Shown piece after piece: positions 25,681 through 36,984 of a stretch of DNA of 64,000 nt (positions are counted from its first letter, which is position 1; each line of letters opens with the position of its first letter). The stretch lies in NCBI GenBank assembly GCA_964202905.1, contig CAXNJO010000004.1, positions 322,345 through 386,344 on the forward strand, read 5' to 3'. The position numbers and the translations under genes were made by a program. Below the pieces are notes generated by a model that did not search any database, was not told where the DNA came from, and saw only the letters and a program-made list of their open reading frames with translations. This DNA comes from Polyangiales bacterium. Lineage in GTDB: Bacteria; Myxococcota_A; Polyangia; Polyangiales; JADJQN01.

Positions 25681-26050
25681 GCGGGGCTGCGCAAGGAATG
25701 CGCGGAGAGGGTCACGCCAAGCCGACCCGCCGAGCCGGACGAGACCATCGTGGAGCGCCTGGACGCTCGGACCACCTCCGTGTTACCCAGACCATCTTGC
25801 AAGATCGTTTTACATCCTGGACCCACCATGACGTCGCCTCCGGCGCACTGAGCGGGACGCCGCGGCCCGCGCGGAGCGATGCGCCGCCCCGACGCATCAG
25901 CTCCTCGCCGCCCGGAGGGTGCCTCGCAGAAGCGGTCGCCGACGAAGTCACCGCGCGCCATTCCGCACCCGCATCTCGGGTGCATCCGGAAGCAGGCCGA
26001 ACGACCATCGCTCTCCACTCGCCGTCTCTGCATCAGGGGAATCCACGCGC

Positions 26051-28192
26051 ATGAGCAACTCGAATCAGTGGGCCGAACAGATGGCCGCCATGTTCGCGGC
26101 TGCCAACGTCGAGGCGGCCAAGAACGCGCTCCAGGCGCGGGCGACGACGACCGAACTCGAAGAGGCGCGCGAAGAGCTCCGCGCCGCCGAGGCGAAACAC
26201 GCAGCGAATCTCGAAGAGTACAAAGAGGTCATCGAACGTTTCGATACCCTGGCCGCGGCGGGATGGCCCGGGAGCGTCAAAGGGTGTTTCGGGGGCGCTG
26301 GGATTCTGGCTTTCGGCTTTTTCATTTCTCTCTGCGCAGGCGGCCATCCAGTCCTGACGGTGTTGCTATTGTTGATCGGAGGCCTTCTTGGCCTCTTCGG
26401 ATTTAGCGACCTCGAGAACTGGAAACGCCTCGCCGGCGCCCTTGCTCGCGAGCGTGATGAAGTTCGCGCGCGCGTGAAACACAGCGCAGAAACGGGCATA
26501 GCGATCACGACTCGCGGTCAGCAAATCGCAACCACGCTCGCCAACCTGGACTTAAAATCTCGGGTCATGACCTTGGGGCAAGTCTGGTTACCACTTCGAG
26601 TCGTCCAGGTTGGCGGCTATTCCGCGCTCGTCGACGAGTCTGGATGCGTCCCGGCGACCACGATCGCGCTTCCCGAGTTGCAGGCGAGCGACGATGTCCT
26701 CGGAAACGTCGAACGAGCGGTGAAGGCTGCCGAGCGTCGTCCGGTGTTGCTATCGGCCTCGGTCGACAACGGTCGCCCAACAACCCCCGGAATCCTTCAC
26801 GGCGAGGAGCTCCAACTCGCCGATGCGATGCGCGAGTTCAGCCGGATGGTCGACGGCGCACAGGTGCACCAATCGGAGGTTCGTCTCGTGGCGCGCGAGG
26901 ATGCGGTCGCCACGATGGCGCGTAAGGTCGGCGCGACTGAGAACCGTAAGGGCCCGATCCTCCGCGCCGGCGGTGACGCGAAATCCGCGGCCGCCAACAT
27001 CTCGGCCGTCCTCGGTCGGTCTCGCGCAGCCGGCACCAACACCCGCGATCGGCTCGCGCGCGCGGCATCCGACCTTCAGCGCGCGACCAACTCGCTGGGT
27101 GCGCTCCGCACACGGGCGGTGCAATCCGTACACGCCGCGGTCGCGGCCGTCGTCGAGCGCTCTCACTACGTCCACACTGTCGTCTACTGTCCCAAATGCA
27201 ATCAGGTTCCGGCCTACCTCTTCCACCGTGTCGGGCTCGAAGAATCCACCGTGCATGAGCTCTCGCCCGTCGAGATTCTCGACCGCATCGACCGCGACCC
27301 CGAATCGAGCGCACGCGTCGAGCGCGAGCCGGAGCTCCTCGACGAACTCGCGCAGGTCATCCTCAAGCTTCAGGAATTGCGGGCCATCGCGACGTCGACC
27401 GAGAGAATCTTCGAGGAGAAGCGGCAATCAGGGACCGTCGTGATCACGGAACTGCGCGCCCTCGAGGCCACCCTCCGCGCGCAGCGTTCGGAATGCGACA
27501 AACACGCACTTCAACTTCGTGGTTGCGTTCGTCGGATCGTCACCGGATCGATTCGGCCGCTGACCGAACTCTCCCGGCAGGCGTCGCTCATGCTGAACCC
27601 CGACACCCATCACTGGTCATGCGCCTCGTGCGCAACGACCTTCGAAGACCCGGCCATCGTACGGATGGGAGAGGTGCTTCGCATCCGCGACGAACTCATG
27701 AGTCCAATGTGGAACCATCTCTGGACGGAAAAGGCGGATTTCTGTCGCAGCGAGCTCTTCCGCTCGAATGAGCAAGTCGCGAACCTGATCGAGCGCGAGA
27801 CGGGCGCGATGCGCGACGTCGCGGAGCAGTACCGCGCCGACATGCGCCCCGTCCGCGAAAACCTGATTCTCTCGGTGACGAATGCCCTCGCTGGTCGGGA
27901 GCGACTGCATGCCACGCAGCAGAGCCTCGTCGCGCTGGGCGTCAGCAGCCGTGAAGCCGTCGAGAAGAACATGGAGGCCGTCGACGAGATGTTCGGCGGC
28001 GACCTCAACGCCATGCGCGCCCGCGTGGAGGCCAAGGAGACCATCCTCGTCCAGCTTCCGGCGACGCTCATCGGAACACGCCCCACGCTGCGTGACCCGA
28101 TCGAGCAGCACAAGGACGCTACGGAGATCTTCCATCGGCGGTTGACGGTCGAGACGCCGCGGCTCGCGAGCGACACGGCGGGAGAAGGCTGA
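26051..28192 (+). CDS. Island gene A: 713-aa uncharacterized membrane-anchored coiled-coil protein. It has an N-terminal helical region, a 2-TM hairpin, a large cytoplasmic domain and two Cys pairs (CPKC...CASC).
   Basis: ATG at 26051 (MSNSNQWAEQMAAMF) with AGGGGAA upstream. TM segment GILAFGFFISLCAGGHPVLTVLLLLIGGLLGLFGF. I recognise no catalytic motif. The stop overlaps the next start (TGATG). Confidence 0.6.
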   Translation: MSNSNQWAEQMAAMFAAANVEAAKNALQARATTTELEEAREELRAAEAKHAANLEEYKEVIERFDTLAAAGWPGSVKGCFGGAGILAFGFFISLCAGGHPVLTVLLLLIGGLLGLFGFSDLENWKRLAGALARERDEVRARVKHSAETGIAITTRGQQIATTLANLDLKSRVMTLGQVWLPLRVVQVGGYSALVDESGCVPATTIALPELQASDDVLGNVERAVKAAERRPVLLSASVDNGRPTTPGILHGEELQLADAMREFSRMVDGAQVHQSEVRLVAREDAVATMARKVGATENRKGPILRAGGDAKSAAANISAVLGRSRAAGTNTRDRLARAASDLQRATNSLGALRTRAVQSVHAAVAAVVERSHYVHTVVYCPKCNQVPAYLFHRVGLEESTVHELSPVEILDRIDRDPESSARVEREPELLDELAQVILKLQELRAIATSTERIFEEKRQSGTVVITELRALEATLRAQRSECDKHALQLRGCVRRIVTGSIRPLTELSRQASLMLNPDTHHWSCASCATTFEDPAIVRMGEVLRIRDELMSPMWNHLWTEKADFCRSELFRSNEQVANLIERETGAMRDVAEQYRADMRPVRENLILSVTNALAGRERLHATQQSLVALGVSSREAVEKNMEAVDEMFGGDLNAMRARVEAKETILVQLPATLIGTRPTLRDPIEQHKDATEIFHRRLTVETPRLASDTAGEG

Positions 28193-29334
28193 TGGCCGAG
28201 GGCGGAATCAGCGCGGGACAAGCGGAGAGCATCGCCCGCAGCGTCGCGCATCAGGTGGTTGCGCCGGTCCAGCGGGAAGTCAATGAACTGCAATCACGCA
28301 TTCGCGAATTGGAGGCGGAGATGGCTCGTGTCGAGGGCGCGATCAGGGACATGCATTCGAGCCTGAGGGATGGGTTGAGTGCTCTGAGGGAGACGAATTC
28401 CGACATCCTCAAAGCGCAGATCGCCACGACGGCCGCGACGACGGTTGGCCTCACGGCCGTGCAGCAGACGAACAGCAGTGGATTCTCCAAGGTCTCCACC
28501 GATCTGAATGTCGTCGATAGCAGCTTGAAGCAGATGAGTCAGGCGCTCGTGCAGATGGAGGTCATCCGCCAGATGCATGAAGTGAAGACGCCCGCGGAGC
28601 AGGTGGAGCGCTTCCAAGAAGAGATTGAGCAGCGATTTTCGAAGGCCGTGGAAAACGTCAACGAGGTGCGACGACAGTACGACGCGATGCAACTCCGCGT
28701 CGCCGACGATCTCGACAAGAAACTGCGTCATATCGGCTCTCACATATACCGCGTATTCGAGGAAGATTTCGAGGAGTTTGCGGAAGGCCCGCTCTCCGCG
28801 CCGTTCGACGCGACTATCGCGCTCGCACTCGAAGTGGACCTCGACGCCATCGAGCGCCGCGCCGAGGCCCTCGAGTCGACCCTCGCAAGTTTCGACGAAG
28901 GCCGTTTGCAGCCCCTGCTCTCCGCGCAATCCGAGCTCGAACACCTGTTCGCGTCGAAATACACCGTCGAAGGCATCACGGAAGAGACCTGCTACGTTCC
29001 CGTTTCGATATGTGAGCTTCAAGAGGGCGACCGCCCCTTAGTCCGCGTCTTGATAGACGAAACGCCGGTAGCGACCTCTGGCGAAGTTCTGACCATGTCT
29101 CTCAAGATGTCAGCCACCGGCCGCGCAATCGCCCAGCGGGTCGACCCGCTCGTCCGCGACCGCTTCAATCGGTTTCCCAAACGCCCGATTCGCCCCGATG
29201 AGCGAAGCAGGCTGAGCGCAGCACTATGGCGACTGGCCGAAGCAGGTCAGATTCCTGCGGAGTTGCTCGACGGCTACATTCTCGTGCTGGAGCAGGCCGA
29301 GCTACAACTCCTCGACGACGGAGAGGTGAAGTGA
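28192..29334 (+). CDS. Island gene B: 380-aa all-helical, coiled-coil-like uncharacterized protein
   Basis: Heptad-like QREVNELQSRIRELEAEMARVEGAIRDM... The start overlaps the gene A stop. The stop lies 1 nt before the gene C ATG. Confidence 0.6.
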   Translation: MAEGGISAGQAESIARSVAHQVVAPVQREVNELQSRIRELEAEMARVEGAIRDMHSSLRDGLSALRETNSDILKAQIATTAATTVGLTAVQQTNSSGFSKVSTDLNVVDSSLKQMSQALVQMEVIRQMHEVKTPAEQVERFQEEIEQRFSKAVENVNEVRRQYDAMQLRVADDLDKKLRHIGSHIYRVFEEDFEEFAEGPLSAPFDATIALALEVDLDAIERRAEALESTLASFDEGRLQPLLSAQSELEHLFASKYTVEGITEETCYVPVSICELQEGDRPLVRVLIDETPVATSGEVLTMSLKMSATGRAIAQRVDPLVRDRFNRFPKRPIRPDERSRLSAALWRLAEAGQIPAELLDGYILVLEQAELQLLDDGEVK

Positions 29335-29335
29335 G

Positions 29336-31285
29336 ATGCCCGAGCGAATCGATGCGGACCGCGTCATCGTCACCGGTCGCAGCGCGGGCAATCAGTTCCC
29401 GCGAACGCAGGCGACCATCCAGTATCGCTTCGAGGCCGACGGAACCGGACCGGACGGCCCGTTCGACATCGATGGATCGGTCTACGGGCGCGACATCCGC
29501 TTTCGCGGGCCAGGGACCGTGGGAGGTCCGGTGCTCGGCCGTGGCGACATCACGCTGAGCAACGAAGAAACGAGTCCGCAACGGTTCTTCGGCGGGCTGC
29601 ACGCGAATGGCAACCTCGGGTGCGACGGACCGCGACGCCCGCCGATAAATTCACCCATCGATGACGTGCGCAAATCCCTCTACGTGGTTCGCGGGGACGT
29701 CGTGGCCCGCAACGTGGTTCTGCGGAATGCCGTCGTCTTCGGAAGCATCCGCGCGACGAACATCACCCTCGAGCACTGCATCGTATTCGGCCAGCTCGTC
29801 GCCAAGGAGCGCTGCACGGTCGCTTGTTCAACCATCATGGCTTATCAGGCACCGAAGGTGGAGTTGCGTGGTCCATGCGCCTTCTTCTTCGCATCGGGGG
29901 AGAGCCACTCTGCACCGGAATGGCTGGACTACACGGACAGCGTCGGCCGCAAATGGCCATGGAGCGCAAAATTCTATCCACTCACGCGCCGTTCAGCGGA
30001 CTTCCCGATCGGCAATCGTCCCTGGCGTGACGGGGACGCTTCGCCCGACACGCTCCTCGTCCACGCGGACTGGGTCCGTACCGAGGTGGTCGAGGTTCAT
30101 CAAAAGGCAGGCTCTGCGGAGGCACTGGAGACCCACAAGGAGCGCTACGTCCTCTCGATCGGCCCGCGCGCGCTGGACTTCGCGTCCATCGAAGCCTCCG
30201 TGCTGACCACGGCCTGGCTCTTCGGCTCTGCGCTCGAATGGGGCCACTATGCCGAGCCCACGCGGGAAGAGGTGCGACGCCGAGTCACCGCGCGGTGCTC
30301 GCCCCAGGAAGCGCACGCCTTCGACATCGCGACCGTTCGCGAGCCCCTCCACGTAGAACGAATCCCCACGGACGGCACGCCGTCCACTCAATCCGTGCCA
30401 GGCGTGACAGCGGCTTCAATGCGCGCTCCTACAGGGGCTGGGATATCGAGTCCGGTAGTCGGAGTGTCGAAACCCGTCGTTGTCGGGAGGCCCGCAGCGC
30501 CGACCTCCTGGAATTCTGGGTTGCCGACCCAATCTGCGGATCAGCCAGCCTCACCGCCACTGGCAGCGAAAGCCGATATCTCTCAGGCCGGGCCGGCGGC
30601 TGATCCCATGGTGTCGCCCACAGAAACACCCGCGACCGGCGGAGCGTACACAAACGCGCCGTCGTCCCCGTCCAGAGTGCCGGTCAAGCCGCCATCAACG
30701 GGTTCGCAAGTCATCAAGTCCGCGGAGGATGACCCAACCCAGAAGTCAGCGCATCGGCCGACCGAGGCGCCCGCGCCCCTCCCAGCACCAGCGGTGTCCC
30801 ACATGGAAGATACGGCGGTACGCGTCCCTTCTACGCGCGCCTCCATGCCAACGCTGATGCACTTCTCGCGTCCGCCAGCGACTTCGACGGAAGCGACCTC
30901 GACGAACAGTCCGGCGCCTCCGATTCCGCGGCGCGTCTCAACGCCGACGCTCCTGCAAATCGCACCTCCATCGATCCCACCGACGGAAGATTCCCGCCCC
31001 TCAGCGGGGCCCGATTTGCCCGAGCCTCCCGCCGGAACGCAGGCCGCACCGACCCAGTCCATCAACGAACCGAGTTCCGAGGACATTCTCGCGCTCTTCG
31101 GAGCATTCAAGTCGACGATGCAATCCATCGGACTAGACGGCAACAACCTGAAGTTCCTCGAATTCTCGGAAAACGCTCGCCGAGCGTGGGCACGCGCCGC
31201 GGAGCAGCTACCCGGACGGTCGATTCGCCTGGTGCCATTTCCCAAGGACGGTCGAGTGAGTCTACGGGTCGAAGTCGTACATTGA
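29336..31285 (+). CDS. Island gene C: 649-aa protein. It has an N-terminal beta-helix-like (bactofilin-like, tentative) domain, a ~250-aa Pro/Ser/Thr-rich disordered linker and a small C-terminal domain.
   Basis: Repetitive hydrophobic-x pattern VVRGDVVARNVVLRNAVVFGSIRATNITLEHCIVFGQLVAKERCTVACSTI. The linker runs SVPGVTAAS...PSSPSRVPVKPPSTGS...PAPLPAPAV. C-terminal NLKFLEFSENARRAWARAAEQLPGRSIRLVPFPKDGRVSLRVEVVH. Confidence 0.55.
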   Translation: MPERIDADRVIVTGRSAGNQFPRTQATIQYRFEADGTGPDGPFDIDGSVYGRDIRFRGPGTVGGPVLGRGDITLSNEETSPQRFFGGLHANGNLGCDGPRRPPINSPIDDVRKSLYVVRGDVVARNVVLRNAVVFGSIRATNITLEHCIVFGQLVAKERCTVACSTIMAYQAPKVELRGPCAFFFASGESHSAPEWLDYTDSVGRKWPWSAKFYPLTRRSADFPIGNRPWRDGDASPDTLLVHADWVRTEVVEVHQKAGSAEALETHKERYVLSIGPRALDFASIEASVLTTAWLFGSALEWGHYAEPTREEVRRRVTARCSPQEAHAFDIATVREPLHVERIPTDGTPSTQSVPGVTAASMRAPTGAGISSPVVGVSKPVVVGRPAAPTSWNSGLPTQSADQPASPPLAAKADISQAGPAADPMVSPTETPATGGAYTNAPSSPSRVPVKPPSTGSQVIKSAEDDPTQKSAHRPTEAPAPLPAPAVSHMEDTAVRVPSTRASMPTLMHFSRPPATSTEATSTNSPAPPIPRRVSTPTLLQIAPPSIPPTEDSRPSAGPDLPEPPAGTQAAPTQSINEPSSEDILALFGAFKSTMQSIGLDGNNLKFLEFSENARRAWARAAEQLPGRSIRLVPFPKDGRVSLRVEVVH

Positions 31286-31319
31286 CCGAACATCAAGTTT
31301 GAACGAGCAGGAAACCATC

Positions 31320-32681
31320 ATGGGCATCCTCGATTTCCTCACGAAACCGGTTCGCGATCAGTTCATCGCGCGGCACCCGTCGGCGATGGATGCGTTGGTG
31401 TTCCGGCATCCGGACCAGAGCCTTCCGTGGGGCGCGAAGGTGACGGTGCGCGCGGACGAACAGGCACTCTTCTTCCGTGAGGGGCGACTGTTCAGCGCAC
31501 TCGGGCCGGGGACGCACACCCTCGAGACACGGCACCTGCCGTTTCTCGGCGATCTCCTGGTCAGCCCGCTGACGGGTGATCAGCACTTCATCACCGAGCT
31601 GTTCTTCGTCCGCACGAGCGAGCAGGCCCTCGCGCTCGGGCCGATGTCGGTGGGCATGCACCGGGATCTCGGCTCGGGGCATCTCGTATCGATTCTCGCG
31701 AGAGCGCGCGTGAACGTGCGCGTGGCCGACGCCGCGCGGCTCATCGTGGGGCTCGGGGGCCTTCGCGAGGATTCCGGGGCTCGTGTCGAGGAGGCCATTC
31801 GAGATCGGATGTCGTCCCTGCTCTCCGCGTGCGTGGGTGAGCTGGCGAGTTCGGCGTCGGTGGTCGAACTCGTCTCCAACCGCTTCTCGGAAGAGATGGG
31901 ACAGCGCGCGATGCAATTGGCCGAGGAGAGCCTCCTCGACACGGGCGTACGGCTCGTCCGGATGATGGCGTTGCAGCTCTCGCTCGACGCCGAGTCCGAA
32001 CGGACGCTGCGCGACTTCGGCGCAGCGCAGGCGCGCCTGAACATCGAGCGTCAGGGCGCGGACGTGGCGACGACGCCGGGATTCGCGGCCTACCACGCGG
32101 CCCACGGGCAGCGCGCGCTCCTCGAGGGGATGGGCACAGGCGCGGCGAAACACGGCGCGCCGGCGATGCTGATGCCGCTCGCGATGGGCGGCGTGCCGGG
32201 CACGTCGGTGCCCTCCTTCGGGACTTCGGCGATTCCCGCTTCGCCCTGGGGCGGCATCACGACGCGACTTTCGCGGCCCCCGGAAGAAGCCCGCTACGAG
32301 CTGCGCACTTCGCGCGGCATCGACGGCCCGTTCGTCGAGCGGCAGGTCGCGTTGCGGCTGCGCGTGGCCGGCTTCGATGCCGCCCAGACCTACATCCGTC
32401 GCGTCGGCGAGACAGGCTGGACACCCCTCGAGGAACATCCCGTCGCGCGTACTCTGATCCAGCAGTCGAAGGCGCTCCCGCTCCGCGCTGGCGTCGGCCC
32501 GAACAAGACGGAGCGCTTCGACCAGGCGCTCGAGCTGGCGGCGGCCGACGGTGTCCTCGCCGCGGCCGAGTTGACGCTCCTCGCCCGGATTGCGCACGAA
32601 TCTGGCCTCGCCGCAGACCTCGACGCCGCGCGCGACTACGTGCTCGTGCGCGCCCGAGCGCTCGGTCTCACCCTGCCCTGA
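31320..32681 (+). CDS. Island gene D: SPFH / Band-7 family protein of the Band_7_1 (YdjI-like) type with a C-terminal TerB-like helical domain
   Basis: MGILDFLTKPVRDQFIARHP...FFREGRLFSALGPGTHTLETRHLPFLGDLL matches the characteristic Band_7_1 N-terminus. C-terminal ERFDQALELAAADGVLAAAELTLLARIAHESGLAADLDAARDYVL is TerB-like. Start chosen at the ATG with AGGAAA at -8; the track ORF starts 7 codons earlier. Confidence 0.7.
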   Translation: MGILDFLTKPVRDQFIARHPSAMDALVFRHPDQSLPWGAKVTVRADEQALFFREGRLFSALGPGTHTLETRHLPFLGDLLVSPLTGDQHFITELFFVRTSEQALALGPMSVGMHRDLGSGHLVSILARARVNVRVADAARLIVGLGGLREDSGARVEEAIRDRMSSLLSACVGELASSASVVELVSNRFSEEMGQRAMQLAEESLLDTGVRLVRMMALQLSLDAESERTLRDFGAAQARLNIERQGADVATTPGFAAYHAAHGQRALLEGMGTGAAKHGAPAMLMPLAMGGVPGTSVPSFGTSAIPASPWGGITTRLSRPPEEARYELRTSRGIDGPFVERQVALRLRVAGFDAAQTYIRRVGETGWTPLEEHPVARTLIQQSKALPLRAGVGPNKTERFDQALELAAADGVLAAAELTLLARIAHESGLAADLDAARDYVLVRARALGLTLP

Positions 32682-34645
32682 CGGCCCTCCGCCGCGCGGG
32701 CGCGAAGCACCTCGAGGCGGCGCTCGACGAAGCCCGCCGCGCGCAGCGACATGGCCATGATGGTGAGTTGCGGGTTGACGCCGAGCGCGCCCGGGAGGGC
32801 CGACCCGTCGCAGACGAAGAGGTTGTGCACGTCGTGCGCCTCGTGCGTCGCGTCGACGACCGAGCGCCAGGGATCGCGCCCCATACGGCACGTGCCGAGC
32901 GGGTGGTACGCGGAGATGTCCATGTGCCGCGCGGCGAGGTCGGCGCGCTCGAGCGCCTCGACGTCCGCGAGGCTCGCGAGGCGTTCGTGCCCGGCGATGG
33001 GCGGGTGCACGGTCTGCGCGCCCGCCGCGAAGAAGACCCGCGCGAGGATCGCGTAGCCGCGCTGCATGCGCGCGCGGTCGTGGCGGCCGAGCCAGTAGGC
33101 GAGCCGCGGCGCGCCGTCGTCGCCGAGCGTCACGCGCCCGCGCGATCGGTCCTTGATCAGGAAGCCGAAGCCCACCGAGCGGCGGTACTGCTCCATCAGC
33201 GCGGTAAACGGCGGGCCGTACGTCGTGAGCGTCGCGGCCGTCACGTCGAGCGGCGCGTGCGCCCCCTCGAAGAGCAGGCCCTCGTCGCGGAACTCGTCGA
33301 TCGCATAGCCCTGCGGGACGCTGCGCCAGCCCTCGAGATCCTCGCCGAACACGCCGATCGCCGACGACGCGGGGTGGATCGAGAGGTTGCGCCCGACCTC
33401 GCCGGACGCGTTGGCAGCGCCTCCGCGCAAGAGCAGCGCGGGCGTGTGGAGCGCCCCACACGCGAGCACCACGACGCGCGCACGCACGCTCACGCGCACG
33501 GTGCCCGTCGGTCCGCGCGCCGTGCCCGTGACGCCGACGGCCGTCTCGCCCTCGTCCTCGGTGAGCACGCGATCGACCGCGAATCCCGTGAGCATTTGCG
33601 CGCCCGCGGCGAGCGCAGCGGGCACCCAGGAGACGTTCGCCGAGCGCTTGGCGTCCGTCGGGCAGCCGAAACAGCAAAGGCCTTGACCATCACAGCCGGG
33701 GGCATTGCGTGGGAGCGCGTGGTGCGCGTAGCCGAGCGCGTCGCAGCCCCGGGCGATCACGTCGGCGGGCTTGCCGAGCGCCGACGCGGACGAGGGCGCG
33801 ACGCCGAGGAAGGACTCGACCGCCTCGTAGTGCGGCGCGAGATCGGCGGGACCGAGGCCCGTGATCCCCTGCGAATCGCGCCATTCCGCGAGGGTTTGCG
33901 CGGGCGCGCGCAGGCAGGTGCCGGAGTTGATGAGCGTCGAGCCACCGACGGCCATCCCGACGGGGATGGGGATCGCCGTGTTCCCGAGCGCGACGGTGAA
34001 CCCGCCCGCGCGATAGGCCTTCTTCATCATCGAGAGCGGGCGCCCGTCGAAGTCGAGCCGCGTCAGGTGCGGGCCCTCCTCGACCATGAGCACCGCGTGG
34101 CCGCGCTCGGCGAGGGCCTTCGCGAGGGGCGCCCCGCCCGCGCCCGTCCCGACCACGACCACGTCGCACTCGAGCGTCTCCCCGTCCGCGAGCGCGCCTG
34201 CGTCCGTGATCTGCCGGCGCCAGCGCGCGGGCTCGAGCGCGGCGGGCCGCTCGACGCCGTAGCGGCAGCCGATCGCCGCATAGACCTGCGGGTCGTCGAA
34301 GTGCGCGAGCTTGATCGGCGCGAGCAGCCCGCGGAGCGGCACGCGCAGCAGCTCCGAGCGGCTCCACGCGTCGAGGGCCGCGAGGCGCCCCGCGCCCGAC
34401 TGCGCCGAGAAGCGCGTGCCCGTCCGCGCGAGCGTCTGCATCTCCAGCGACCAGAGCAGCGCGCGGTAGCCCCGCGCCACGGACGGCGCAGCGCCCGCGA
34501 AGAAGCGCTCCACGCGCCGGTACGTCCCCTCGCCGGGCGCGGCGAGCAGCGCCCCCGCAGGCAGCGCGACCTCGCCGAGCGCACGCAGAATGGCCCGCTC
34601 GCGCGCGTCGAACACGTCCGTCGCGCCCCCGCGCGTCGCGGCCAT
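32636..34645 (-). CDS. GMC-family FAD-dependent oxidoreductase
   Basis: Dinucleotide-binding motif ECDVVVVGTGAGGAPLAKALAERG. C-terminal GMC region HPLGTCRMG. The start, at the M of MAATRGG (cat 34643-34645), lies 1 nt after the upstream stop. Confidence 0.8.
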   Translation of the reverse strand: MAATRGGATDVFDARERAILRALGEVALPAGALLAAPGEGTYRRVERFFAGAAPSVARGYRALLWSLEMQTLARTGTRFSAQSGAGRLAALDAWSRSELLRVPLRGLLAPIKLAHFDDPQVYAAIGCRYGVERPAALEPARWRRQITDAGALADGETLECDVVVVGTGAGGAPLAKALAERGHAVLMVEEGPHLTRLDFDGRPLSMMKKAYRAGGFTVALGNTAIPIPVGMAVGGSTLINSGTCLRAPAQTLAEWRDSQGITGLGPADLAPHYEAVESFLGVAPSSASALGKPADVIARGCDALGYAHHALPRNAPGCDGQGLCCFGCPTDAKRSANVSWVPAALAAGAQMLTGFAVDRVLTEDEGETAVGVTGTARGPTGTVRVSVRARVVVLACGALHTPALLLRGGAANASGEVGRNLSIHPASSAIGVFGEDLEGWRSVPQGYAIDEFRDEGLLFEGAHAPLDVTAATLTTYGPPFTALMEQYRRSVGFGFLIKDRSRGRVTLGDDGAPRLAYWLGRHDRARMQRGYAILARVFFAAGAQTVHPPIAGHERLASLADVEALERADLAARHMDISAYHPLGTCRMGRDPWRSVVDATHEAHDVHNLFVCDGSALPGALGVNPQLTIMAMSLRAAGFVERRLEVLRARAAEGRQGRVRPSARARTST

Positions 34646-34646
34646 C

Positions 34647-35123
34647 TCAGCCGCCCCGCAGCGCTTCGCGCGCGACCGCACGACGCCGCACGTCGAGCAC
34701 GCGCTGCTGCACCCGCGCGACGGGCAGCCACGACGCGAGAAAGCGCGGCAGCGTGCGCAGCGCGAAGCCGAGCTCGCCCTCCGCGCGCACCACGCCCTCC
34801 GCGTCGCGCAGCGTCACGGGCATGCGCGTCATCGATCGCAGCGGCGCGCGCAGCGAGACACGCTTCTGCGCGTCGAGCGTGAGCGCGTCCCCGCCGGGCA
34901 GCGCGAGCCGCAGCGCGTAGGTGATCGTGCGGGCGCGCGCGTCGATCGCGAGCGTGCCGTGTGCGGGCACCTCGGCCCCCCACGGCAGCGCCCACGCGAG
35001 CCCGCGCAGCGCGAAACGCCCGCCCGCGCCGCCGTGCGCGCTCACCTCGAAGCGCAGCGGCGTCCGGACGCCCGCGCGGTCCCGGACCGTGCCCTCCATC
35101 GTCTCGACGAACGAAAGCTGCAT
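34647..35123 (-). CDS. hypothetical protein (158 aa), co-transcribed with the GMC oxidoreductase
   Basis: Non-repetitive ORF. Tight coupling to the downstream gene. Confidence 0.45.
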   Translation of the reverse strand: MQLSFVETMEGTVRDRAGVRTPLRFEVSAHGGAGGRFALRGLAWALPWGAEVPAHGTLAIDARARTITYALRLALPGGDALTLDAQKRVSLRAPLRSMTRMPVTLRDAEGVVRAEGELGFALRTLPRFLASWLPVARVQQRVLDVRRRAVAREALRGG

Positions 35124-35152: not shown

Positions 35153-36199
35153 TCAGACCACGGGTACGCCCGGCTCGGCCTCGCGCCGCAGCAGCTCGAG
35201 CGCGCCGCCGTGCGCCGACCGGCGACTGAATGGCGGTTCACCCTTTGGGCGAACCTCGAGCAGCACCTCGGCGAGCTTGCTGTTGAAGCAGTACGCCATC
35301 GCGTGATCCGGGCTCTCGTAGCCGAGGCACGCGAACGGCTGCGACGTCGCGTCCATGCGCAGGCGCAGCTCGCCCGCGGGCCCCGCGAGCCGCAGCGTCC
35401 AGCGCGTCGTCGAGAGCTGCGCCTCCTGCCGCCAGACGTCGAAGACGCGGTCGAAGCGGTACTCGCGCGCGCCGCGCCGCACGACCGCCGCCGAGAGCCG
35501 CGGCGAGGTGTGGCCGCCCACGCGCACGCGCCCCGAGAAGCCCTCGACCATCGCCTCCGGCTCGCCCGCCTCGGCCGGGAAGAGGCACTGCCCCCACGCG
35601 TACTCGAAGGCGTGCTCGCGCCCCCAGTTGTGCCCGCCCATGCCCGTCCAGCCGTCGAGCGAGACCGACTCCGAGGTCCCCGGCGCGCCCCCGAGCGCAG
35701 GCACCGTGGCGTGCCCGGCGAGCACGATCGACGGGCTCGGCGTGAGCAGTTTCGACCGCGGGAACGGCCCCTCGCGCAGGAATCGCCACGGGTAGATCGA
35801 GAGCGGCTCGGCCACGGGCGACGGCGCCGCCGACCAGCGCAGCGCGAACGAGGCGTGCGCGTCGCCGCGCTGCACGCGCCCCTCGGCCGCGCCCGCCGAC
35901 GCGACGCGCAGCGACCAATCGCCGATCGCGACGGCGGCGCCCTCGGGCGTCGCGCGGAACATCCCCGGCGCGAGCGGATGCGTGTGCTTGCCCGCGAAGG
36001 TGCGGCCCGCCTCGCCGTCGAACCAGATCAGCCAGGTCTCGGCGACCGCGGGCGCATCGAGCGGCGCGAGGATCGTCGCCTTGATCCAGAGCGCGCGGGG
36101 GCGGTGCGGATCGTTCGCGCGGAGGAAGTAGCTCTCGACGTGGCCGGGCGTGCCGGCGTAGCGCGGCGCGTTCGGCGGGAGCTCGGCGCTGTGCCTCAT
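35153..36199 (-). CDS. hypothetical protein (348 aa)
   Basis: Balanced composition (…WIKATILAPLDAPAVAETWLIWFDGEAGRTFAGKHTHPLAPGMF…). The start overlaps the GntR stop by 4 nt. Confidence 0.5.
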   Translation of the reverse strand: MRHSAELPPNAPRYAGTPGHVESYFLRANDPHRPRALWIKATILAPLDAPAVAETWLIWFDGEAGRTFAGKHTHPLAPGMFRATPEGAAVAIGDWSLRVASAGAAEGRVQRGDAHASFALRWSAAPSPVAEPLSIYPWRFLREGPFPRSKLLTPSPSIVLAGHATVPALGGAPGTSESVSLDGWTGMGGHNWGREHAFEYAWGQCLFPAEAGEPEAMVEGFSGRVRVGGHTSPRLSAAVVRRGAREYRFDRVFDVWRQEAQLSTTRWTLRLAGPAGELRLRMDATSQPFACLGYESPDHAMAYCFNSKLAEVLLEVRPKGEPPFSRRSAHGGALELLRREAEPGVPVV

Positions 36200-36984
36200 C
36201 GGCGGCTCCGCGTGCGCTTGCGGGGCTCGGGCCCGGCCGCGGTCGTCGGCGGGACGGCGCGCAGGGCCGTCTCGGCGTGGGCGCGCATCGCGGCCCCCGC
36301 GGCGGTGACGTCGCGGCGGCGCATCGCCTCGACCGCGCGCCGGTGGTGCGAGGCGTCGAAGACCTCGTCGCCGTAGAGGTGCGCGAAGCGCTCGCGGCCC
36401 GTGTCGTAGAGGCGCCGCACGAAGCCCGCGAAGAGCTGCAGGAGGCGGTTGCCGCCGATCGCGACGAGCGCCTCGAAGAAGTCGTAGTCGAGGTCCTGCC
36501 GCGCGGCCGCGGCGCGCGTCTGTTCGAGGCGCCGCGCGAGCGCGTCGAGGCGCGCGAGCGAGGCGGGATCGGCCTGCAGCGTGGCGCGCTCGGCGGCCCA
36601 GCCGAGCAGCATCGCGCGCAGCTCGTGGAGGTCACGGAGGATGCCGGGATCGACCTCGGCCCCCTCCTCGAAGAAGTGCGGTACGAGCTCGAGACCGGCG
36701 GAGAGGAAGATGTCCGCGACGCGCGTCGCGCTGCCCTGCCGCACGTGCACGAGCCCCCACGACTCGAGGCGGCGCACGGCCTCGCGGATCGACGCGCGGT
36801 TCACGTCCCACGTGTCGGCGAGCGTGCGCTCCGAGGGCAGCGCGTCCCCCGGACGCAGCTCGCCGGCGACGATGGCGCGGCGCAGCGCACCGGCGATGCG
36901 GTCGGCGACTTTGGCGGGCGAGGCAGGCGTGTCCACTGGTCGGACCAGTATCACGCGACACGAGCCACATACAACTGATTTCAC
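36196..36984 (-). CDS. GntR family (FadR-like C-terminal domain) transcriptional regulator
   Basis: wHTH TLADTWDVNRASIREAVRRLESWGLVHVRQGSATRV followed by an all-helical FCD-like domain. The exact start is uncertain. Confidence 0.75.
   Translation of the reverse strand: MKSVVCGSCRVILVRPVDTPASPAKVADRIAGALRRAIVAGELRPGDALPSERTLADTWDVNRASIREAVRRLESWGLVHVRQGSATRVADIFLSAGLELVPHFFEEGAEVDPGILRDLHELRAMLLGWAAERATLQADPASLARLDALARRLEQTRAAAARQDLDYDFFEALVAIGGNRLLQLFAGFVRRLYDTGRERFAHLYGDEVFDASHHRRAVEAMRRRDVTAAGAAMRAHAETALRAVPPTTAAGPEPRKRTRSRR

Follow-up and report, generated by a model that had tools for sequence, protein, structure and literature searches.

A conserved four-gene cassette

A stretch of 64,000 nucleotides (nt) from the genome of a Polyangiales bacterium (contig CAXNJO010000004.1; this whole stretch is called the window below) was found to carry four consecutive plus-strand genes, here named A to D, in an island of lower guanine-cytosine (GC) content. 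Gene A (26051..28192) encodes a protein of 713 amino acids (aa) with a predicted membrane anchor, gene B (28192..29334) a coiled-coil protein of 380 aa, gene C (29336..31285) a protein of 649 aa with a predicted beta-helix, and gene D (31320..32681) a soluble SPFH protein of 453 aa; all four lengths match records in the public protein collection. The genes are tightly packed: the stop codon of A and the start codon of B have one base in common within TGATG at 28190-28194, the stop codon of B and the start codon of C form TGAGATG at 29332-29338, and AGGAAA at 31309-31314 ends 5 nt ahead of the ATG of D. These three junction strings, quoted in a first-pass annotation of the window, are all exact in the sequence.

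A scan of 185,579 species-representative genomes gave 22 loci, distributed among metagenome-assembled genomes (MAGs) of Myxococcota/Polyangiaceae, one MAG each of Holophagales and Sphingomonadales, and many Betaproteobacteria, including the cultured Limnohabitans parvus II-B4, where the cassette occupies about 192.99-198.81 kb of NZ_NESN01000004.1. When the window proteins were used as phmmer queries, the order A-B-C-D was found to be kept in every bacterial locus that is long enough, about 20 independent loci, with homologues of each cassette protein being 20-70% identical. The A-B and B-C junctions overlap or are at most 22 nt apart at all loci. The closest relatives of A (52% and 49% identity) lie on two metagenome contigs in an identical gene order, and three more distant homologues of C again belong to the four-gene set, amid unrelated neighbours. 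Co-evolution was tested by Mantel correlation of the pairwise distance matrices of the four proteins; the matrices correlate with r = 0.945-0.962 (Mantel p <= 5e-4), and with r = 0.88-0.94 within the myxobacterial-type clade alone. A to C are thus co-conserved with a Band_7_1 gene (D), as the first-pass annotation had proposed, and A to D are one conserved, co-inherited and horizontally mobile cassette.

No cassette-specific family of flanking genes was found across distant loci, the sole recurrent family being a kinase/FGE-sulfatase group. Genes for Ser/Thr kinases and FGE-sulfatases are found a few kb or less from the cassette at loci L003, L004, L006, L010, L015 and L016, and at L006 genes of this type stand directly upstream of A. 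This neighbourhood is probably background, such genes being very abundant in Myxococcota genomes.

The four proteins and their variants

Searches of Pfam, NCBIfam, PADLOC and PHROGs, of PDB sequences and, for A and B, of PDB folds left A, B and C without a confident match to any characterised family, in agreement with the first-pass annotation. The architecture of A is predicted with confidence. An N-terminal helix is followed by a hydrophobic hairpin of about 45 residues (76-122) and then by about 590 residues of long antiparallel helices, a body that contains a split four-cysteine site and, at ~180-300, a small alpha/beta domain. No family match for A was obtained in the four family collections, and HMMER, run exhaustively against 1.84 billion representatives, showed the A family to be rare: 95 clusters were obtained, of which 59 fall below 1e-30 and almost all have a length of 690-770 aa. 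A hydrophobic stretch of 40-50 residues at about positions 75-135 was detected by a Kyte-Doolittle scan in 48 of the 48 aligned members; it would fit a two-helix hairpin, with the N- and C-terminus both cytoplasmic. The AlphaFold2 model built from the family alignment, with a predicted local distance difference test (pLDDT) score of 84.2, has a 60-residue N-terminal helix before the hairpin, a second hairpin helix extending to residue 164, and helices up to 85 residues long beyond about residue 300. No specific relative of A was found in the PDB by sequence profile, and none by a fold search with this model.

The four cysteines of A form the pairs C380/C383 (CPxC) and C524/C527 (CxxC), separated by 141 residues and not by about 100 as had been annotated. 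All four are present in 22 of the 48 aligned members; in the other 26, the last three have been replaced jointly. This joint loss points to an optional structural metal site, and zinc-dependent catalysis by the cysteine pairs was rejected on the same ground. The most conserved element of A is a Trp-rich helix, PMWxHLWTEKADF...FR[ST]NE...RADMRxVRENL, which is likely an interaction surface.

The N-terminal region of A gave weak profile matches to MakA, Hbl L1 and Nhe (E = 0.005-0.015). Like these ClyA-family alpha-pore-forming toxins, A begins with a long helix, a hydrophobic hairpin of about 45 residues and another long helix; unlike them, it is predicted to reside in the cytoplasmic membrane, has no signal peptide and possesses an extra body of 550 residues. 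Identity of this region with a ClyA toxin was rejected, since composition accounts for the matches, with a better score for a designed helical repeat protein, and since no fold match was obtained.

For B, a low-confidence model (pLDDT 65.8) predicts a pair of helices, each about 90-100 residues long, and a small alpha/beta domain at the C-terminus. The description of B as all helical was accordingly not borne out, its final ~110 residues being predicted as alpha/beta in that model. The B family comprised 26 clusters in a word-indexed search, with the core KLRxIGxHIF conserved. Nothing beyond coiled-coil noise was found for B in Pfam, NCBIfam, PADLOC and PHROGs, and the fold search with the low-confidence model returned generic matches only. 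B was also considered as a relative of PspA/ESCRT-III, and neither the sequence profile nor the fold search gave a signal for it.

The product of C consists of an N-terminal domain of 345 residues, a linker at 346-575 (230 residues, 58% Pro/Ser/Thr/Ala and 20% Pro) and a C-terminal domain of 74 residues at 576-649. The N-terminal domain is conserved among 31 homologues, one of which bears the Joint Genome Institute name CcmA/bactofilin, while the tail is variable, full-length members of the family having 321-649 aa. In the window protein the beta-helix region spans about residues 45-172. This protein had no match in Pfam, NCBIfam, PADLOC or PHROGs and no specific PDB relative by profile. In its family, sub-threshold Pfam matches were obtained to LbH_EIF2B (11 of 30 members) and to Bactofilin (3 of 30, E = 0.004-0.008), and such left-handed beta-helix and Bactofilin matches fall at about residues 112-170 in many members. 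Every bacterial C member tested scores below the Pfam cut-off for Bactofilin (PF04519). A C-like protein of a haloarchaeon clears this cut-off (29.0 against 27.9 bits) and aligns to residues 45-172 of the window protein with E = 3e-11 in pairwise BLASTP. C is therefore best described, on transitive and sub-threshold evidence, as a divergent bactofilin-like beta-helix protein of unproven membership. The earlier verdict that C is unrecognisable holds for the window protein itself in Pfam and does not hold for its beta-helix, which is bactofilin-like in this transitive, sub-threshold sense. A GYF_2 domain stands at the end of some C proteins (P0027), and others have long proline-rich tails.

D belongs to Band_7_1 (PF13421), which it matches over residues 32-233 with 61.1 bits where 24 is the cut-off (E = 1.5e-16), and the same family is matched by all 20 cassette D proteins. 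The assignment of D as a Band_7_1 SPFH protein starting with MGILDFL was thus right. No transmembrane segment was detected in D by the Kyte-Doolittle scan. The 20 aligned D proteins start with a short hydrophobic/basic segment (MGILDFL or MFGFLKK), continue with the SPFH domain, and then share a helical region, a Gly-rich linker, a GYF_2-like domain and optional tails; in the window protein the GYF_2-like domain lies at about 325-375 and a TerB-like helical tail at about 395-453. GYF_2 was matched in 10 of the 20 proteins (best E = 4.3e-10), the window protein alone giving E = 0.19. Several D proteins have a second, C-terminal copy of GYF_2 (L004 9427-11055, L009, L010, L011, L012, L015 and L016). 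The TerB-like tail named by the first-pass annotation finds weak support, in 2 of 20 members at E = 0.0027. No specific relative with a solved structure was found when the D family was compared with PDB sequence profiles. A contact of GYF/proline-rich type between C and D is conceivable from these domain layouts.

Two bacterial subtypes can be distinguished. In the window type there are four genes and A has the four cysteines, whereas in the alpha/beta-proteobacterial type A lacks the four-cysteine site and a fifth gene is present between C and D. The product of the fifth gene is a conserved multi-pass membrane protein of 141-163 aa with the motifs D.FTYG and PLPxKSxRRxYExP and with no Pfam family; the gene was located at L017 12932-13363, L018 4637-5071, L019 12657-13082, L021 12881-13372, L022 9390-9842, L027 11471-11923 and L028 12659-13111. 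A third arrangement is present in the haloarchaeon Halonotius aquaticus F13-13 (L029 8056-12682, NZ_QKNY01000005.1), where A-, B- and C-like genes for proteins of 547, 306 and 261 aa stand in the same order. These genes retain the family motifs CPDC...CDAC, WDQLWTEKDD and GSHIFEI, and the SPFH protein is replaced, after the C-like gene, by a multi-pass membrane protein of 419 aa that has HEAT repeats. The GC content of this archaeal cassette is 10 points under that of its flanks.

Composition, borders and acquisition of the island

The lower-GC island with its four plus-strand genes, reported from inspection of the window, is real when GC content and GC content at third codon positions (GC3) are computed. 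GC content is 0.59-0.68 in 500-nt windows over 26000-31999 and 0.71-0.77 in the flanks; in a 1-kb profile the bins covering 26-32 kb are the six lowest, and the rest of the 64 kb are all higher. The interval 25701-32690 has 65.2% GC against 73.2% for the remaining window, and the cassette itself has 65.0% against 73.9% for the flanks (9 GC points lower). Flanking genes have a GC3 of 0.87-0.95, compared with 0.77 in A, 0.745 in B and 0.73 in C; D, with 0.85, is near host composition, and the deviation is carried mainly by A to C. Some details of the first-pass annotation need correction. The shift sets in at about 26.0 kb, which is the start codon of gene A, and not at about 25.7 kb. The two AT-containing strings quoted for it are present, at 26319 and 26362, but they lie within the codons of the hydrophobic hairpin of gene A.

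The intergenic leader (25681..26050, plus strand), which comprises 370 bp between a divergent MatE gene and gene A and is the presumed promoter region, had been called AT-rich. It has in fact 69.5% GC, and only 25781-25830 is low. This lone 50-nt patch of 48% GC (ccatcttgcaagatcgttttacatcctggaccc...), in a leader otherwise of about 70% GC, could act as promoter or operator. A search of the leader gave no sigma-70-like site, and no motif common to the upstream regions of the window cassette, L001 and L002 was found.

The flanking genes are ordinary (MatE transporter, M24 peptidase, GMC oxidoreductase and GntR regulator). The 3' end of D overlaps a convergent open reading frame (ORF) for the GMC oxidoreductase (32636-34681, minus strand) by 46 nt (32636-32681), and neither an intergenic spacer nor a terminator-like site was found at the right edge of the island. 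Further downstream, an ORF of 465 aa at 35238-36635 (minus strand) is without a Pfam match.

The GC content of the window cassette equals that of its closest relatives (65.4% at L001 and 63.9% at L002), and at many other loci the cassette deviates little from its flanks. Because the window cassette is lower in GC than its flanks and equal to its closest relatives, and because GC3 is low in A to C, its composition fits a recent arrival by transfer from a lineage of about 65% GC. Horizontal acquisition, suggested by the first-pass annotation, is supported by GC and GC3. As was also stated there, no integrase is present, and no tRNA, Rfam match or flanking direct repeats were found around the cassette. 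No recombinase and no viral or plasmid relatives that would point to a transfer vehicle were found, and the hypothesis of a mobile element was left unsupported by the viral, plasmid, tRNA, Rfam, repeat and integrase searches.

Proposed function and comparison with known systems

The cassette corresponds to no system described so far and probably encodes a scaffold of a new kind that is attached to the membrane. Our preferred reading, to which we give a probability of about 0.5, is a sub-membrane scaffold that would work like PspA-YdjGHI of Bacillus subtilis from unrelated partners, its function being inferred by analogy. A to D would come together in a fixed stoichiometry and form a scaffold at the cytoplasmic side of the membrane. 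A would serve as integral-membrane anchor and receptor, the hydrophobic hairpin being confined to A and missing from B, C and D. Since D has no transmembrane segment, it would be recruited to A and oligomerise there, as YdjI/SamI does on YdjG/YdjH. The coiled coil of B and a beta-helix polymer of C would provide filament- or lattice-forming parts; in the models, helices of 50-100 residues make up most of A and B. Such a scaffold would stabilise, patch or fence off part of the cytoplasmic membrane, most plausibly under envelope stress. No enzymatic family was found in A to D with Pfam, NCBIfam, PADLOC and PHROGs, so that the action of the cassette must come from assembly at the membrane. Nor does any of the products correspond to an SPFH partner described so far.

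In B. subtilis, YdjI is soluble, requires the membrane proteins YdjG/H of its operon for membrane localisation, and serves as a scaffold for PspA foci (PMC8581546). When YdjI is lost, membrane-stress signalling becomes deregulated (bioRxiv 10.64898/2026.02.06.704340). The cassette resembles the pspA-ydjGHI (samGHI) operon in that D is a Band_7_1 SPFH protein free of transmembrane segments and encoded by the last gene of a tightly packed operon, in that a membrane anchor and a long helical protein that forms oligomers are encoded upstream, and in that a partner protein has a cysteine site of zinc-ribbon type. It differs in lacking PspA/IM30, as judged from Pfam, profile and fold searches. YdjG consists of two zinc ribbons, an NTF2-like domain and a transmembrane segment, and YdjH of a TPM domain (PMC11237479); no Pfam match to TF_Zn_Ribbon, TPM or NTF2-like domains was found in A to C. 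A is unrelated to YdjG and YdjH, the cassette adds the bactofilin-like C, and D has GYF_2-like/TerB-like tails in place of the C-terminal zinc ribbon of YdjI, a ribbon being present in 1 of 20 D members. We propose, by analogy, that the likeness to PspA-YdjGHI would concern the mode of action and not family membership.

In the flotillin/NfeD and HflK/HflC-FtsH systems, as in the cassette, an SPFH protein is presumed to oligomerise at the cytoplasmic membrane with an operon partner. D differs from these in having no membrane anchor of its own, and the Pfam search showed no partner of NfeD, flotillin-domain or protease type. The first-pass annotation had recognised no PspA/IM30, NfeD or flotillin partner, and the Pfam searches, together with a PDB profile search for B, confirm this. 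With the bactofilins (PF04519; BacA/B, BacM and CcmA), C shares a predicted beta-helix, with weak similarity to bactofilins and left-handed helices, and a proline-rich variable tail; C differs from them in an additional family-specific domain of about 170 residues after the helix and in having no evident N-terminal membrane-targeting sequence.

Several points weigh against a stress-related scaffold of the PspA-YdjGHI kind. The bactofilin link of C is transitive, and the window protein is without a Pfam match. B shows no PspA/ESCRT-III similarity, and its model is of low confidence (pLDDT 65.8). No stress-type promoter and no conserved upstream motif were found in the leader, and the patchy, transfer-driven distribution would suit a conflict system, too. 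The haloarchaeal A-B-C core, having no SPFH gene, suggests that the SPFH protein may be accessory rather than organising.

A more tentative idea is one that we regard as doubtful. The A-B-C core could be a hitherto unrecognised machine for remodelling or attacking membranes that is common to bacteria and haloarchaea, with the SPFH protein as a bacterial add-on; a bactofilin-like polymer and an SPFH cage would then control a membrane-inserted coiled coil of new fold. If true, the core would be either a new class of enzyme-free abortive-infection effectors or a new means of membrane repair independent of ESCRT-III.

A function in conflict, such as an anti-phage system, is unlikely in our estimation. 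The SPFH/bactofilin-like assembly would hold A inactive until infection, upon which the hydrophobic hairpin and long helices of A would reorganise and A would permeabilise the membrane, resulting in abortive infection. A rare family that is patchy across phyla with clear horizontal transfer, a self-contained cassette without fixed neighbours, and the helix/hairpin/helix N-terminus of A with its weak ClyA-family matches (E = 0.005-0.015) would all suit such a system. However, A to D have no significant match in PADLOC-DB 2.0, the best being HEC-07 at 14.5 bits for A. Among 103 flanking proteins of 19 loci, the PADLOC matches within the top 25 families listed are five generic Ser/Thr kinases, and the Pfam matches are mostly housekeeping, with no restriction-modification system, CBASS (antiphage signalling that relies on cyclic oligonucleotides), integrase or transposase among the top 25 listed. 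Searches for relatives among viral contigs, PHROGs and plasmids were negative as well. The option of a defence module, raised by the first-pass annotation, thus receives no support from the gene context in the flanks of these 19 loci.

Similarly improbable is a cytoskeletal or positioning module, in which C would polymerise on the membrane and, together with A, B and the SPFH protein, localise a cellular process (cell-wall synthesis, polarity or a membrane compartment) and not serve a stress response. Proline-rich variable tails are typical of bactofilins, and C has such a tail; it is bactofilin-like, with an archaeal member above the cut-off and one homologue named CcmA/bactofilin, and A-B-C occurs without SPFH in the haloarchaeon. 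On the other hand, core morphogenetic modules are usually inherited vertically, beside their client genes, whereas this cassette is rare (22 of 185,579 species representatives), mobile and without a recurrent client gene nearby, and the bacterial C members tested are all under the Pfam Bactofilin cut-off. GC-rich DNA gives many spurious long ORFs, but the view that A to D are mere neighbours without a common function, or in part mis-called ORFs, is refuted by an order and coupling kept in about 20 loci with differing flanks and by the co-evolution of the four proteins, and is given next to no weight.

To our knowledge, SPFH proteins are universal and their function is understood only via their partners, namely HflK/C with FtsH, flotillin-like proteins with NfeD, and YdjI with PspA and YdjG/H. 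The present cassette gives SPFH proteins a new and sharply defined partner set: it is an SPFH-partner membrane module in which three of the four families are unannotated and all are co-evolving. The gene set was not described in the papers found on pspA-ydjGHI and in the survey of phage shock proteins, and our literature search found no paper mentioning both SPFH and bactofilin proteins, two kinds of protein that this cassette brings together in its D and its bactofilin-like C. A has a confidently predicted architecture without a match among solved structures, and the enzyme-free cassette provides a clean model for scaffold-only membrane biology. The question of its function is directly testable, because cultured strains are available that carry the cassette (Limnohabitans parvus II-B4) or a variant of it (Halonotius aquaticus F13-13).

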